Shown here in pieces: positions 32,663-37,637 of a stretch of 37,741 nucleotides of DNA. Below the pieces are notes generated by a model that had not been told where the DNA came from, ran no database searches, and was given only the letters and a program-made list of their open reading frames with translations. Positions within the stretch are counted from its first letter, which is position 1; each line of letters opens with the position of its first letter. The translations under genes and the position numbers were made by a program. This DNA comes from a virus. Taxonomy: Duplodnaviria > Heunggongvirae > Uroviricota > Caudoviricetes. The stretch is taken from IMG/VR virus record IMGVR_UViG_2541047834_000001. One strand, 5' to 3'.

Positions 32663-32663
32663 A

Positions 32664-32688
32664 GGCCGCTTTCGCGGCCTTTAAATTT
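32664..32688 (+). terminator. Terminator hairpin GGCCGC-TTTC-GCGGCC + TTTAAATTT
   Basis: Perfect 6-bp GC stem with T-rich tail; between convergent genes. Confidence 0.55.
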
Positions 32689-32962
32689 ACCGGGTTTGTT
32701 TTCGTAATTGTTCGGCACAATAGTCGAGATGTGTTTGCAGATCCTGCATAGACATCTGTGAGCTGGTGACATAGTTAATCAGTGCAGTCAGTTCGGCAAG
32801 TGGGCCATCGACATTAAATCCATCCTTATCGAGATCCCGGAGTAATTTCATCAAGTGCGATCCCTCCACCAGTGACCTGACGCCTCCCGGCGTGTGAATC
32901 CTTTCGGTAAATCCGTCTTCCAGTGGATAGTGATACTGCTGCATCTTATCTTCTCCATGCAA
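32687..32962 (-). CDS. Hypothetical soluble protein (91 aa), reverse-oriented moron with own promoter region
   Basis: Only minus-strand gene in the structural module; upstream intergenic 32963-33139 contains an ATTACC-N5-GGTAAT site. Confidence 0.55.
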   Translation of the reverse strand: MHGEDKMQQYHYPLEDGFTERIHTPGGVRSLVEGSHLMKLLRDLDKDGFNVDGPLAELTALINYVTSSQMSMQDLQTHLDYCAEQLRKQTR

Positions 32963-33020
32963 TAACTGTATATTTATACAGTATCAAATAATTTGTTTGC
33001 TATCCAGCACGTTTTGCAAA

Positions 33021-33035
33021 TTACCCGAAAGGTAA
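33021..33035. promoter_or_regulatory. Operator-like palindrome ATTACC-CGAAA-GGTAAT between moron gene and tail fibre gene
   Basis: Perfect half-sites; followed at 33067 by TATGTGGTTTTTAA. Confidence 0.5.
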
Positions 33036-33139
33036 TATCTATTCGTATTCACAGTCTTTCTATCCATATGTGGTTTTTAAGGTAATAGAATAACCAGATA
33101 TGCGGCGCAACGGGTGCTGCGACTATCTGGAGATTTAAC

Positions 33140-35329
33140 ATGACGGTCTCAACCGAAGTTGACCACAACGAATACACCGGTAACGGCGTTACGACATCAT
33201 TTCCGTATACCTTCCGTATTTTCAAAAAAACCGACCTGGTTGTTCAGGTGTCTGACCTGAACGGGAACGTAACAGAATTGGTTCTGGATACCGGTTATAA
33301 GGTAACTGGAGCGGGCACTTATAGTGGCGGTGAAGTGGTTCTCCCGTCGCCGCTTGCTGCTGGATGGCGAATTACGATAGAGCGTGTGCTTGATGTGGTG
33401 CAGGAGACTGATCTTCGCAATCAGGGAAAATTTTTCCCCGAAGTTCATGAGGATGCATTTGACTACCTGACGATGCTGATCCAGCGATGTTTCGGGTGGT
33501 TCAGACGTGCATTGATGAAACCATCTTTGCTTGCAAAATATTACGATGCAAAGCAAAACAGAATTTCTAACCTTGCAGATCCATCACTTGAGCAGGACGC
33601 TGTAAATAATCGCTCAATGCGTAATTATGTCGATGCTGCAATCGCCGGGGTTGTTGGTGGTTTTGGTTGGTTTATACCGTCAGGAAGCGGGGCAAGACAA
33701 CGAACATTTCAAAGCAAAATGAGGGATATAATTTCTCCTTGTGATTACGAAGATAATATTTTTATGATTAAGGAGTTGATATCCAAAGGCAAAAATGCCG
33801 CTGTTTTTAACTCATATTATACTTTTGTTATTACTGTTGGCGAATGGGGTGATTACCCTACACTCAAAGATGCAATCATTGCAGCCCAGTCAATGAGACC
33901 TATGTGGGATGGTGGTAATGCTTTCTGCGAAATAAGAATTAAGACCGGGCATATTATCAACTATCAAATTGAATTCAGTTCAGGTGTTGATTTGTCTTGG
34001 ATTAAAATAACATCAGAAGACTCAGTGGTTTTCTCTGACACTCGTTTGTTTACTAAAATCGTTAGAACGTATTACGAATACAAGTATTTATTTTACATTT
34101 GCGATGCAGCAAAAAGTCCTGTATTTGCTATTCAGATCGAAGAAAATAGAGATGATAGCGATGTTTGTGCATTTATTGTAACTCAAAAAGCTGAACTTAA
34201 TTTCTATCCGTATTCAGGTGCTCGAAAGTTCTACGTTGGAATTCATGGTAGTTTTGGTGCAAAAATTAGTGCATATCATACCGGATGTGCTCCTGATGAG
34301 GAAAGTGTTGCTGCATATATGCCAGAAGGGTATTACGTATGTGATTTTTCTTATAGCAGATACTCTTCCCTGCAACTGGTAAATAATGTCAAGGCATCAA
34401 TGCCTGTAAGCAAGTTTGAACGGTGCACAGAGAGTACGGTTGCGTCAGTTAATTGTATTTATAATGTTAAAGCAGATTTTCAGGGGTCAAGTGCAAGCTA
34501 TTGTTATATAGGATGGAATGTAAGAGATGGTTCAAATGTTAATATACGCGACCATAAAACTATACATTGCTCATATCGTGGATTAACCTGCATTCATACA
34601 GCATATGTTGATGCAAGACGACATGACGTTGAAGAAAGTGATGCAGAAACAAGTGGTAAAGTCCTTGAACCAAATATTGAAAAAGGTTTTTATGGATGTG
34701 CACTTGGTGTGCGTATTGATGGTGCGGGTTGCGTTGATGTTGCTGGTAATGATATGCGCAATTGTGGAACAGCCGTTAATGCAGACACTGGTGCTGTTAT
34801 TTCAGGAAAGGCTGTAGATATCTCAGGGGCTGAGCTGGGATTTGATTGCCATGCAGGAGCATCTGTTAATTTTCCAAGGCTATGGGGTACAGATATAAAA
34901 AAATTAATGCACCTCCAAGATGGTGTAAGGTTTAACTCTAATATTTGTCATGTATTTGGTGCAAATCCCACAAAAGATATTAGATGGATTGATGTAGAGA
35001 GATCTGAAGCTTCTTTTATGAATGCAACGCTGGATGCAGATTCAGGATTTATTGCCGACTGTGGTAGTAGGATAACCATTGAAGGAAGTAAAGTTAAAAA
35101 CCAAACAATAAGAAGTTTTTTTGGATCATATGTGGCTATAAATAATACTGTTGCTGACAGAACTTATTCAGATATAGCCGATGTTCCGCAGTTGACTATT
35201 AGTGGAGGATCTTTTATTTCTGCTACAGGATATTCTAATTCTGACTCCAGCCCTCTGAGGTTGAGCACAACACGAAATACACTTGGCGTTGGAGGAGCTA
35301 TATTTTCAACCAATGGGGAAGTTTCATGA
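33140..35329 (+). CDS. Tail fibre / tailspike protein (conserved N-terminal adaptor, variable AT-rich distal domain)
   Basis: 729 aa; N-terminus (NEYTGNGVTTSFPYTF...NRISNLADPSLEQDAVNNRSMRNY) resembles podovirus tail-fibre anchors; distal portion about 35% GC. Confidence 0.75.
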   Translation: MTVSTEVDHNEYTGNGVTTSFPYTFRIFKKTDLVVQVSDLNGNVTELVLDTGYKVTGAGTYSGGEVVLPSPLAAGWRITIERVLDVVQETDLRNQGKFFPEVHEDAFDYLTMLIQRCFGWFRRALMKPSLLAKYYDAKQNRISNLADPSLEQDAVNNRSMRNYVDAAIAGVVGGFGWFIPSGSGARQRTFQSKMRDIISPCDYEDNIFMIKELISKGKNAAVFNSYYTFVITVGEWGDYPTLKDAIIAAQSMRPMWDGGNAFCEIRIKTGHIINYQIEFSSGVDLSWIKITSEDSVVFSDTRLFTKIVRTYYEYKYLFYICDAAKSPVFAIQIEENRDDSDVCAFIVTQKAELNFYPYSGARKFYVGIHGSFGAKISAYHTGCAPDEESVAAYMPEGYYVCDFSYSRYSSLQLVNNVKASMPVSKFERCTESTVASVNCIYNVKADFQGSSASYCYIGWNVRDGSNVNIRDHKTIHCSYRGLTCIHTAYVDARRHDVEESDAETSGKVLEPNIEKGFYGCALGVRIDGAGCVDVAGNDMRNCGTAVNADTGAVISGKAVDISGAELGFDCHAGASVNFPRLWGTDIKKLMHLQDGVRFNSNICHVFGANPTKDIRWIDVERSEASFMNATLDADSGFIADCGSRITIEGSKVKNQTIRSFFGSYVAINNTVADRTYSDIADVPQLTISGGSFISATGYSNSDSSPLRLSTTRNTLGVGGAIFSTNGEVS

Positions 35330-35622
35330 TTAAGAGCATTGATGTCACTCCATTTCTTCACTCGCTTTGCGCTTTTGCGGCTCAGGTACTGGTTGGTATT
35401 TTTACCGGAAACTGGGCTTACGGTGCGATAGCCGGTTGTACGTTCTTCATTGCGCGTGAACACACCCAGGCAGAATATCGCTGGATAGAAAAGTTTGGGA
35501 AAGGGAAACGTATCAACATGCCGTGGTGGGGAGGTTTTGATCCACGCGTGTGGGATGTGGGAAGTCTGTTGGATTTTGCTGTTCCTGTTGTTTTTTGTTT
35601 TTGTGTTTATTTCTCTATTTGA
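35326..35622 (+). CDS. Small membrane protein (98 aa) coupled to tail fibre gene
   Basis: ATGA overlap with tail fibre stop; two hydrophobic segments. Confidence 0.5.
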   Translation: MIKSIDVTPFLHSLCAFAAQVLVGIFTGNWAYGAIAGCTFFIAREHTQAEYRWIEKFGKGKRINMPWWGGFDPRVWDVGSLLDFAVPVVFCFCVYFSI

Positions 35623-35627
35623 CTGCT

Positions 35628-35650
35628 ACCGCGCCATTAAATGGTGCGGT
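35628..35650. promoter_or_regulatory. 23-bp near-palindrome ACCGCGCCATTAAATGGTGCGGT upstream of lysis cassette
   Basis: Inverted repeat with one G/T mismatch in intergenic 35623-35824. Confidence 0.4.
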
Positions 35651-35752
35651 ATTCAACCTGCTCTTCACTGTTTGTTTCTTCAGAGTCATGTAAAAGGTGA
35701 GCTTTATTCTCGGCATGAAAAACAGGGAATTGACGATGTTAAAGTAACAAAA

Positions 35753-35766
35753 AACCATAAATGGTT
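35753..35766. promoter_or_regulatory. Palindrome AACCAT-AA-ATGGTT overlapping a -10-like ATAAAT
   Basis: Shares CCAT(T)AAATGG core with 35628-35650; TTGACG 17 bp upstream. Confidence 0.4.
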
Positions 35767-35824
35767 TATTATGCGTAATGCTTTACTGTTCAGGAGGTTG
35801 TTATGCATATAAACGGTGGAAAAC

Positions 35825-36229
35825 ATGTCAGCTCAACTAACCAGTGAAACTTTAAATCAGTGGCTTAGCATGAGTTCTCTGGCGGCGGTGATAGCAGGAG
35901 TTCCTCCTGAGGTTGCTTTGGGTGCTTTGGCTGGAGCGGTAATTTTTGTTACCTCTGCAGTAGAGTACCCCATCCGTCGCCGGGTGCTCCTGTCGATGCT
36001 CAGCTTTCTTTGCGGCCTTCTCTTTTACAAACCAGCAGCATCAATTCTTATCGGCATAGCCAGCCTGATCCCTACCATCACGCAGGACTCTTTTGAAAAA
36101 GGGATTGTTTTCTCTGCAGGCGCATTCGTGTCAGCAATTGTCGCTGTGCGTATTGGTATATGGCTCTATCACCGTTCCGATAATCCACGCGAGTTAATTC
36201 CGGGGAGAAAAGACGATGGTAACGCATGA
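35825..36229 (+). CDS. Membrane protein, possible holin/antiholin
   Basis: Multiple TM segments; directly upstream of and overlapping the next membrane gene and endolysin; start may be GTG 35816. Confidence 0.45.
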   Translation: MSAQLTSETLNQWLSMSSLAAVIAGVPPEVALGALAGAVIFVTSAVEYPIRRRVLLSMLSFLCGLLFYKPAASILIGIASLIPTITQDSFEKGIVFSAGAFVSAIVAVRIGIWLYHRSDNPRELIPGRKDDGNA

Positions 36230-36524
36230 GTTTTTTTTGCTTATCACCAATGCAGTTATTTGCACTGGCATAGCAATTCGCGTTGTCACATTCCGGCGTA
36301 ACGGCTCTCAACACCGAAGGTGGGGAGGATGGCTTGCTTATTTCCTGATTGTTGCTGCGGCCAGTATTCCTGTTCGTGTCGCCTATGCAATCTGGTTACG
36401 TACGCCAATGGCTGTGGATTTATCTGAGGTCATTATCAACGCTGTCATGCTGGCTGCGGTTATTAAAACGCGCGGTAACGTCGTTCAAATTTTTAAAGTA
36501 TCGAGGTCTAAACATGGAGATTAA
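36216..36524 (+). CDS. Putative holin (3 TM, charged C-terminus)
   Basis: 102 aa with three hydrophobic segments and basic tail, immediately upstream of the endolysin gene. Confidence 0.5.
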
Positions 36525-37143
36525 ACAATTCCAGCGAGCTGCTGGTATCAGCGAGGCACTGGCCGCACGCTGGTTCTCGCATATAACTTCTGCGATGAAA
36601 GAGTTTGGTATCAGCAAAGCAGAAGATCAGGCAATGTTTATTGCTCAAGTCGGGCATGAGTCTGGGAGCTTCACCAGGTTGCAGGAGAATTTCAACTACA
36701 GTGTCAGCGGACTGGCTAACTTCGTTCGGGCTGGGCGTCTCACTCAGGGGCAGGCTAATGCACTGGGGCGCCGTGCTGGTGAAGCACCATTGCCACTTGA
36801 GCGCCAGCGCGCGATCGCAAATCTGGTATACAGCAAACGCATGGGGAACAATGCCCCTGGTGATGGCTGGAATTACCGAGGGCGCGGACTTATCCAGATT
36901 ACCGGTTTGAATAACTATCGTGATTGCGGAAACGGTCTGAAGGTTGACCTGCTGGAGAGCCCTGAACTGCTGGCGCAGGACGAATATGCGGCTCGTAGCG
37001 CGGCGTGGTTCTTCGTCAGCAAAGGCTGCATGAAGTATACCGGCGATATTGTACGTGTAACTCTGATTATCAATGGTGGCAGAAACGGTATCGACGACCG
37101 GCGTGCGCGGTACATCACAGCAAGTAAGGTACTGGCGGTATGA
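36514..37143 (+). CDS. Endolysin, glycoside hydrolase family 19 (chitinase-like lysozyme)
   Basis: [12 protein letters not shown]...[16 protein letters not shown] motifs typical of GH19 endolysins; ATG at 36514. Confidence 0.8.
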
Positions 37144-37637
37144 TCTGGGCATTTGTAAAAGCATACCGTAAACAGTTACTTATCGTGGCGATGCTTGCTG
37201 TTCTGGTCATATCAGGAGTTGTTGCCTGGAATGTGCACGGCATCCGTCAGTACGATGCCGGGTATGCGCAGGCGAAGGAAGATCAGAAACAGGCTGATGA
37301 TAAGTTAAGGTCACAGCGTGAGCAGGAGAAAACACAAATTGAACGTGAAGCACAATCCCGTATCGATGCGGCGCGTGCTGATGCTGAGTATGCTAATTCC
37401 GCTGCTGACAGCATGCGCGCCGAGCTTGACAAAACCAGGCGGCTCGCCGAACACTATACCGGATCTTTCCCCCCTGGCACGCCAGCCAGCAAGGTCATCG
37501 GTGTGCTCGCCGACATGCTTGAAGAAAGCAACCGAGTTTACAACGCAACAGCAACTGAGGCTGAAAAGTATCGTATCGCAGGGGAATTCTGCGAGCAGCA
37601 ATACGATTCACTGAAGAAGCAAAAATCGTGGCACTGA
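37140..37637 (+). CDS. Rz-like i-spanin
   Basis: N-terminal TM ([18 protein letters not shown]) followed by charged coiled-coil; ATGA-coupled to endolysin. Confidence 0.7.
37366..37614 (+). CDS. Rz1-like o-spanin lipoprotein embedded in the +1 frame of Rz
   Basis: [20 protein letters not shown]: signal peptide with lipobox LTAC; Pro-rich mature part; entirely inside the Rz ORF. Confidence 0.6.
   Translation: MRRVLMLSMLIPLLTACAPSLTKPGGSPNTIPDLSPLARQPARSSVCSPTCLKKATEFTTQQQLRLKSIVSQGNSASSNTIH

Follow-up and report, generated by a model that had tools for sequence, protein, structure and literature searches.

A tailspike gene in an epsilon15/phiV10-like prophage that joins a genus-conserved anchor to a probably exchanged, AT-rich beta-helix module

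The tail fiber gene in the analyzed DNA, a stretch of 37,741 nucleotides hereafter called the window (IMG/VR record IMGVR_UViG_2541047834_000001), raises the question of whether its two ends share one history. The original prediction was that a conserved N-terminal anchor is fused to a horizontally exchanged, AT-rich receptor-binding part, giving the phage a host range or receptor different from those of relatives with the same virion genes. We consider it very likely that the only tailspike of an epsilon15/phiV10-like Uetakevirus is encoded here, composed of the anchor and a replaceable beta-helix module that recombination swaps in from an AT-rich pool. By analogy, the tailspike presumably forms a trimer. 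The gene and its three modules are as follows.

33140..35329, plus strand: complete tailspike (receptor-binding protein) gene, 729 amino acids, ATG start, intact open reading frame
33140..33675, plus strand: module A, the N-terminal virion anchor conserved in the genus, residues 1 to 179, GC 47%
33676..33991, plus strand: module B, with the hinge motif (SGARQRTFQSKMRDIISPCDYEDN), a helical N-cap and the first beta-helix rungs; AT-rich, the lineage's own allele
33992..35329, plus strand: module C, the remainder of the beta-helix receptor-binding domain (body and C-terminal part), recently exchanged between phage types

The open reading frame exists exactly as predicted, with 729 residues. The PHROG family 5662, named "tail fiber protein," covers residues 1 to 729 of 729 (E = 0, 1,636 bits), and the matches to 22 other PHROG tail families are confined to residues 1 to 207. 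The protein is 100% identical to a database cluster of 190 member sequences annotated "hypothetical protein" (P0001) and 99.3% identical in amino acids to a protein of phage HEMP4. The reading frame is intact in 11 complete genomes and in phage HEMP4, making an assembly artifact unlikely.

The window is a prophage of a Uetakevirus, an epsilon15/phiV10-like temperate podovirus of Escherichia coli, its first 25 kb being 97 to 98% identical in nucleotides to the Uetakeviruses phiv142-3, PAS61, HEMP4, ZX5, TL-2011b, and phiV10. The same element is present in E. coli 118UI as a prophage adjoining yfgI, and a sister prophage in FDAARGOS_497 occupies the identical chromosomal site with a spike annotated as GH28-related. 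The flanks of the tailspike gene are syntenic with those of phiV10, ZX5, and the prophages of 118UI and FDAARGOS_497, with the internal virion protein genes and a small divergent gene preceding the tailspike slot and the holin/endolysin cassette following it. The two immediate neighbors are as follows.

32687..32962, minus strand: small divergent gene with a PHROG 450 match, belonging to the conserved flank left of the cassette
35326..35622, plus strand: ORF98, a small hydrophobic protein in the conserved right flank, with a match to PHROG 1443 (function unknown)

The divergent gene is apparently the counterpart of a 258-nt gene likened to epsilon15 gp19 in the phiV10 annotation. The annotations of phiV10, ZX5, TL-2011b, and the FDAARGOS_497 prophage each show a divergent gene immediately before the spike, the equivalence being one of position and not of alignment, and the left homology arms to sister prophages, 32664 to 33675 and 32687 to 33728, both take in the PHROG 450 gene. 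On the other side, the ATG of ORF98 overlaps the tailspike stop codon (ATGA), and its product, with at least two hydrophobic segments, has no match above threshold in Pfam, NCBIfam, or PADLOC. Homologues with 74 to 80% amino acid identity are found in many lambdoid phage records at similar coordinates (about 21 to 24 kb where given from the left end), and in phage 2G7b, the sole lambdoid record checked, the homologue lies directly 3' of the tail fiber gene. The FDAARGOS_497 prophage has a 91% identical copy after its unrelated spike.

The N-terminal part was predicted to resemble podovirus tail fiber anchors, which is borne out at both the protein and the nucleotide level. The anchor is 66 to 70% identical in amino acids to the epsilon15 and phiV10 tailspikes (70% and 67%, respectively, over residues 1 to 165/166), and the 5' 561 nt of the gene match epsilon15-like phages only, with 97.5% identity to HEMP4, 94 to 95% over the first 536 nt to ZX5, phiv142-3, EC.W1-9, and the Phi05 contigs, and weaker remaining matches. 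A sequence search of the PDB matches the anchor to residues 1 to 207 of the Cobetia phage Carin1 depolymerase Dpo31 (PDB ID 8ck1; E 3e-31), whose domain D1 is its solved homologue. Pfam shows no PF09008 head-binding domain in the 729-residue protein, setting it apart from P22-like (Lederbergvirus) tailspikes, and the T7-type fiber domain PF03906 stays below its gathering score (13.4 versus 25.2 bits, residues 135 to 161 only). The conserved anchor with typical GC content stands as proposed, but at about 179 to 184 codons it is longer than the roughly 150 first suggested.

The end of the anchor coincides with a homology boundary. Compared with the FDAARGOS_497 sister prophage, the window is homologous from 32664 to 33675 (95.5%) and again from 35339 to 36300 (91%), with no homology in between; the exchangeable cassette is therefore 33676 to 35338, from after codon 179 to just past the stop codon. 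The left junction lies at the hinge, where GGFGWFI is followed by PSGSGARQRTFQSKMRDIISPCDYEDN, and the hinge motif R-T-[FQ]-[QH]-x-K-[MN]-x-[DE]...D[FY] recurs in the consensus of the module family (RTQHDKNxExxxPxDF). The Phi05_1387 B record, considered as a further member of the module family for its protein match up to residue 337, was rejected, since its truncated open reading frame departs from the family immediately beyond the hinge motif.

The halves of the gene, when compared separately, have discordant relatives, as the original prediction anticipated. Beyond the first 561 nt, the remaining 1,629 nt match only four phage records, with 99.9% identity to HEMP4 and, starting at query position 265, about 98% identity to JEP4, HZ41, and 92CQ. 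The P22-like phage JEP4 belongs to Lederbergvirus, the N-terminus of its spike being the PF09008 head-binding domain, which the JEP4-type homologue cluster P0002 contains at an E value of 4e-66. The 92CQ record carries baseplate and tail fiber assembly genes, and its flanking genes are 98 to 99% identical to those of phi92-like myoviruses (about 140 to 150 kb); it is the sole myovirus record with the module at megablast level in a collection of 50,697 phage records. At the protein level, the Vectrevirus VEc3 has a 48% identical module. Homology to JEP4 spans ORF98 up to 35585, and homology to 92CQ ends at 35342; in JEP4, ORF98 travels with the receptor-binding domain.

The similarity to these phages does not begin at the hinge, revealing a second mosaic boundary inside the cassette. 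Sliding identity to JEP4/92CQ is 50 to 57% at 33692 to 33990, rises to 90 to 93% at 33992 to 34111, and reaches 98 to 100% in all windows but one from 34112 to the stop codon. Module B, which is 100% identical to HEMP4, has only 50 to 57% nucleotide and 43% amino acid identity to the corresponding JEP4/92CQ stretch, and the 33692 to 33990 segment is homologous to its counterpart but old. Within the family, module B varies most (30 to 55% amino acid identity); it is modeled as helices followed by the first strands, with an AF2 pLDDT of 67 to 92. The inner crossover maps to the DLSWIKIxSEDxVV...YYxYKYLFY region, where conservation across the family is highest and invariant columns are numerous, as expected if diverged alleles underwent homologous recombination. 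The distal body is more alike across three virion types than the Uetakevirus backbones are among themselves, arguing for recent exchange.

Base composition also changes within the gene. The window has a GC content of 49.2% and the tailspike gene one of 40.1%, and a sliding GC analysis with a maximum-likelihood change-point at 33702 (codon 187; 47.6% upstream, 37.6% downstream) agrees with the predicted compositional chimera. Among 1.6-kb windows across the 37.7 kb, GC is lowest in the one beginning at 33651 (37.6% versus a mean of 49.2%, SD 3.0%, about 3.9 SD below), all 25 of the lowest-GC 500-bp windows start within 33501 to 34901, and the GC3 of the gene is 0.29, compared with 0.42 to 0.65 in all other long plus-strand open reading frames of the window (at least 120 residues). 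The predicted change near 33700 and the low GC at 34021 to 34080 (35.0%) were right, but the distal average is 37.6% and not about 35%, with a local rise to 42 to 46% at 34600 to 34900. Of the residues said to be enriched distally, Ser (9.9 versus 6.5%), Tyr (5.1 versus 3.0%), and Cys (3.1 versus 0.7%) are, together with Ile, but Asn is not (5.3 versus 4.7%).

This unusual amino acid makeup of the distal part, rich in Ser, Tyr, Cys, and Ile, could suggest that the low GC reflects amino acid composition or local selection in a vertically inherited gene, without any horizontal exchange. We regard such an origin as highly improbable. From the first 190 codons to the remainder, GC1, GC2, and GC3 go from 0.56, 0.42, and 0.44 to 0.45, 0.44, and 0.24; as GC3 roughly halves while GC2 is unchanged, the drop lies at the codon level and is no by-product of amino acid content. 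Furthermore, the distal part recurs with 98 to 100% identity in a pair of unrelated phage backbones, and the nearest relatives by backbone lack it. Horizontal exchange of the module thus withstood both observations named beforehand as speaking against it, the GC content being nonuniform and the halves differing in their closest relatives.

The low GC content does not single out a source. The drop recurs in each of the five sister Uetakevirus spikes measured, with 45 to 47% in the anchor and 36 to 44% distally (FDAARGOS_497 prophage, 36.3%; PAS61, 40.3%; phiV10, 41.7%; TL-2011b, 42.0%; ZX5, 44.5%), and the distal module of the window, with 37.9%, is near the low end among them. The region flanking the module in 92CQ has a GC content of 37.5%, equal to that of the module, which raised the possibility of a single low-GC donor; we rejected it as unproven, given the AT-rich spikes of the five sister Uetakeviruses and of JEP4. 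The JEP4 spike is AT-rich throughout, even in its head-binding part (39% GC), so that the low GC of the copy it holds points to no single donor.

The structure prediction agrees with the expected fold of the distal part. Residues from about 185 to 729 are predicted to form a right-handed parallel beta-helix of the pectin-lyase-fold type, giving the protein the C-terminal beta-helical receptor-binding domain of a Uetakevirus tailspike. No family in Pfam, NCBIfam, or PADLOC matches residues 185 to 729 above threshold, and identity to the closest solved structure reaches just 17%. The alignment of the module family has invariant acidic, basic, and His columns. The module probably binds a host surface polysaccharide and may cleave or modify it, with the fold being the sole basis on which an enzymatic activity is suggested.

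A word-indexed search of 5.8 billion proteins yielded 23 clusters related to the module, and when 1.84 billion 50%-identity representatives were scanned exhaustively with HMMER, about a dozen full-length relatives emerged, along with 139 matches at E<1e-3 that were mostly partial. The family is joined to at least five anchor types, namely, the epsilon15 type, PF09008, Tail_spike_N (Pfam ID PF18668), the tail-collar fiber domain (Pfam ID PF12571), and the T7 fiber N-terminus (Pfam ID PF03906). Two of the homologues bear an additional C-terminal GDSL/SGNH esterase.

We propose that residues 1 to about 179 would serve as the genus-specific anchor fixing the spike to the tail, and that residues from about 185 to 729 would bind and probably cleave or modify surface polysaccharide, letting the virion reach the outer membrane. 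The distal two-thirds of the gene (33676 to 35338) would be a replaceable cassette between stretches conserved across sister prophages, the left one being the anchor's 3' end plus the hinge motif and the right one ORF98 and the holin genes, and recombination within these flanks would swap the cassette. A second crossover at about 33990 to 34110, inside the most conserved beta-helix stretch, would have joined the N-cap allele native to this lineage with a distal body 98 to 100% identical to the JEP4, HZ41, and 92CQ version. The low third-position GC would indicate that the module originates in a common pool of AT-rich receptor-binding modules and not in the backbone of about 49% GC.

A tailspike module decides which bacteria a phage attacks, which leads to the second half of the original prediction. 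Relatives with the same virion module bear unrelated distal modules, including phiV10 (O157 host), PAS61 (O146), TL-2011b (O103), and the prophage with the GH28-related spike, making it a reasonable inference that the receptor differs from theirs. For the receptor itself, we turned to the carrier genomes. The module is present in 16 of 5,426 complete E. coli genomes, as the epsilon15-type fusion in 11 (99.9%) and as the P22-type fusion in 5 (98%), two of the latter records being the same strain. Serogroups were read from RefSeq wzx/wzy names for 12 carriers, with EC332, GPEC1186, and CB7286 left out. At least seven O serogroups occur among these 12. The O15 carriers are 118UI and, by co-occurrence with the O15 wzy, ECO_1_S, ECO_2_R, EECO1006, MSB1_7C, and the P22-type 24A16CRGN010; the others are GN02461 (O25, wzy frameshifted), PD23 (O83), ECCNB12-2 (O21), MS 198-1 (O11), FORC_082 (O5), and PCP07083 (O7).

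An O15 O-antigen-specific depolymerase would be the type of protein expected from Uetakevirus and Lederbergvirus spikes, and O15 wzy/wzx is indeed overrepresented, with 6 of 16 module carriers compared to 100 of 5,426 genomes overall (Fisher's p = 2e-7), in two independent contexts, five epsilon15-type fusions and one of the P22 type. The five epsilon15-type O15 carriers, however, may be a single clone, and a conservative count of lineages leaves about 2 of 11 (p of about 0.02). A control search with the module only showed that three carrier genomes hold a second module copy or fragment and not the O15 wzy, and a clean assignment to O15, with the overlap standing at 6 of 16 carriers after this control, was rejected. 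The six further serogroups listed above speak against it as well, as does the lysis by JEP4, which has the same distal module, of 32 of 67 diverse poultry isolates (PMC8425383), a broad range for a one-serogroup spike. Specificity for O15 thus seems to us rather unlikely.

The same spread over seven serogroups and the broad host range of JEP4 (PMC8425383) could instead indicate a surface structure common to many serogroups, for example, a conserved glycan, in place of one O-antigen. Other E. coli receptor-binding protein subtypes, including that of the Uetakevirus phiv142-3, are also inconsistent with serogroup, and shared receptors have been proposed for them (PMC10408124). Against this, prophage carriage is weak evidence for a receptor, as lysogens often exchange their O-antigen loci later on and a prophage may be defective; the overrepresentation of O15 is clear; and the JEP4 host range comes from lysis tests and not from adsorption or receptor genetics. 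We see recognition of a shared structure as possible, though short of probable. That the beta-helix module represents a small uncharacterized family targeting such a structure is a tentative suggestion, and a doubtful one; if true, it would account for the occurrence of the module in lysogens belonging to at least seven serogroups, for JEP4's unusually broad host range, and for the recent spread into three virion types.

Conserved anchors with horizontally exchanged receptor-binding domains were described by Pas et al. (2023) for Uetake-, Lederberg-, and Justusliebigviruses and other genera, with the Uetakevirus anchor taken as the first 205 residues of the phiV10 receptor-binding protein (PMC10408124). 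JEP4 and HZ41 are not among the supplements of that study, and a literature search on HEMP4, 92CQ, HZ41, and VEc3 found nothing relevant. As the modular exchange is published and the same GC drop occurs in five of five sister spikes, the finding is an ordinary one; the modularity of anchor and receptor-binding domain with cross-genus transfer is already documented for Uetakevirus, and the present instance adds little conceptually. The cassette limits (33676 to 35338) and the inner crossover near 33990 to 34110 are useful for host range engineering and host prediction from sequence. The module subtype is structurally uncharacterized, with carriers not tied to one serogroup, and if its receptor is shared across serogroups, it would be attractive for broad-range phage design.

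Among known systems, the P22-like spikes of JEP4 and HZ41 and the "bifunctional tail protein" of cluster P0002 have a distal beta-helix 98 to 100% identical in nucleotides from about 34112 to the stop codon, followed by ORF98, but in JEP4/HZ41 the N-terminus is PF09008, absent from the window, and the N-cap is the other allele (43% amino acid identity). The nearest solved fold, Staphylococcus phage Andhra gp15 (PDB ID 8egr), is similar in fold only (14 to 17% identity), comes from a phage with a Gram-positive host, and is attached N-terminally by a loop and a coiled coil, unlike the spike of the window. For Dpo31 (PDB ID 8ck1), the likeness lies in domain D1, homologous to the anchor (residues 1 to 202, E 3e-31), whereas its catalytic part has no significant similarity to the module. 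The Uetakevirus spikes epsilon15 gp20, phiV10 gp25, and the PAS61 O146 spike share the anchor, the gene position, the architecture of anchor and beta-helix, and the AT-rich distal module with the window, but the sequence of that module is unrelated. In phiV10 and PAS61, an O-antigen acetyltransferase gene lies just downstream of the spike, at the place taken by ORF98 in the window. Such serotype conversion genes downstream in relatives are likewise AT-rich, with a GC content of 30.9% for phiV10 oac.

The gene that directly follows the tailspike gene in the window encodes a small hydrophobic protein, its ATG overlapping the tailspike stop codon, and two further features lie on either side of this gene pair:

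35326-35622, + strand: ORF98, a 98-aa hydrophobic protein with a match to PHROG 1443
32663-32680: terminator-like hairpin, a sequence feature within the region 32663-32687, upstream of the tailspike gene
35816-37637: lysis cassette, downstream of the tailspike gene, with a pair of adjacent holin-family genes (PHROGs 198 and 217)

ORF98 has no match in Pfam, NCBIfam or PADLOC, and its homologues are found in three virion types, each time directly 3' of the receptor-recognition gene. Uetakevirus prophages with unrelated spikes encode a homologue at 91% nucleotide identity, and the P22-like phages JEP4 and HZ41, which share the distal beta-helix module, also have one downstream of the spike gene, with about 98% nucleotide identity in JEP4, where ORF98 is co-transferred with the module. 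In 2G7b, the sole lambdoid siphovirus checked, the homologue follows the tail fibre gene, and homologues in lambdoid records show 74-80% amino acid identity. Among complete E. coli genomes, more than 1800 contain a match to ORF98. The slot that ORF98 fills in the window is, in contrast, occupied by O-antigen acetyltransferases in phiV10 and PAS61.

Upstream of the tailspike gene, the region 32663-32687 is a variable moron slot. Immediately after the hairpin, HEMP4, a Uetakevirus with a near-identical spike, carries about 2 kb of extra genes and the prophage of the O15 carrier 118UI about 3.5 kb at the same point, all absent from the window and including BRO-N antirepressor-like genes, among others. 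The lysis cassette looks like an ordinary one; in the 118UI prophage, the holin genes are followed, at positions equivalent to those in the window, by genes with the annotations GH19 endolysin and DUF2514 protein, and the DUF2514 protein is presumably Rz-like.

Three of the carrier genomes, MS 198-1 (NZ_CP146687.1), EC332 (NZ_AP039429.1) and GPEC1186 (NZ_CM142789.1), each match the 1369-nt distal module in two separate places and have a second module copy or fragment elsewhere on the chromosome. In the chicken isolates ECCNB12-2 (NZ_CP033635.1, about 1.168 Mb) and EC332 (about 3.537 Mb), probes placed where a yfgI-integrated prophage would be expected fell far from the O-antigen locus, so that the spike-carrying epsilon15-type prophage appears to lie somewhere other than at yfgI, its site in 118UI, and this prophage type likely has a second integration site.

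The O25 cluster of the carrier GN02461 (40903-41965 in the stretch L006 of this genome) has a frameshifted wzy, and this strain may therefore be without polymerised O-antigen. GN02461 shares several identical proteins flanking its O-antigen locus with the O21 carrier ECCNB12-2 and a few with 118UI, which agrees with this locus having been replaced within related lineages.

Two database protein clusters of the module family, P0014 and P0017, contain an extra C-terminal GDSL/SGNH esterase domain behind the beta-helix, which suggests acylated glycans as substrates of the phages with these homologues.
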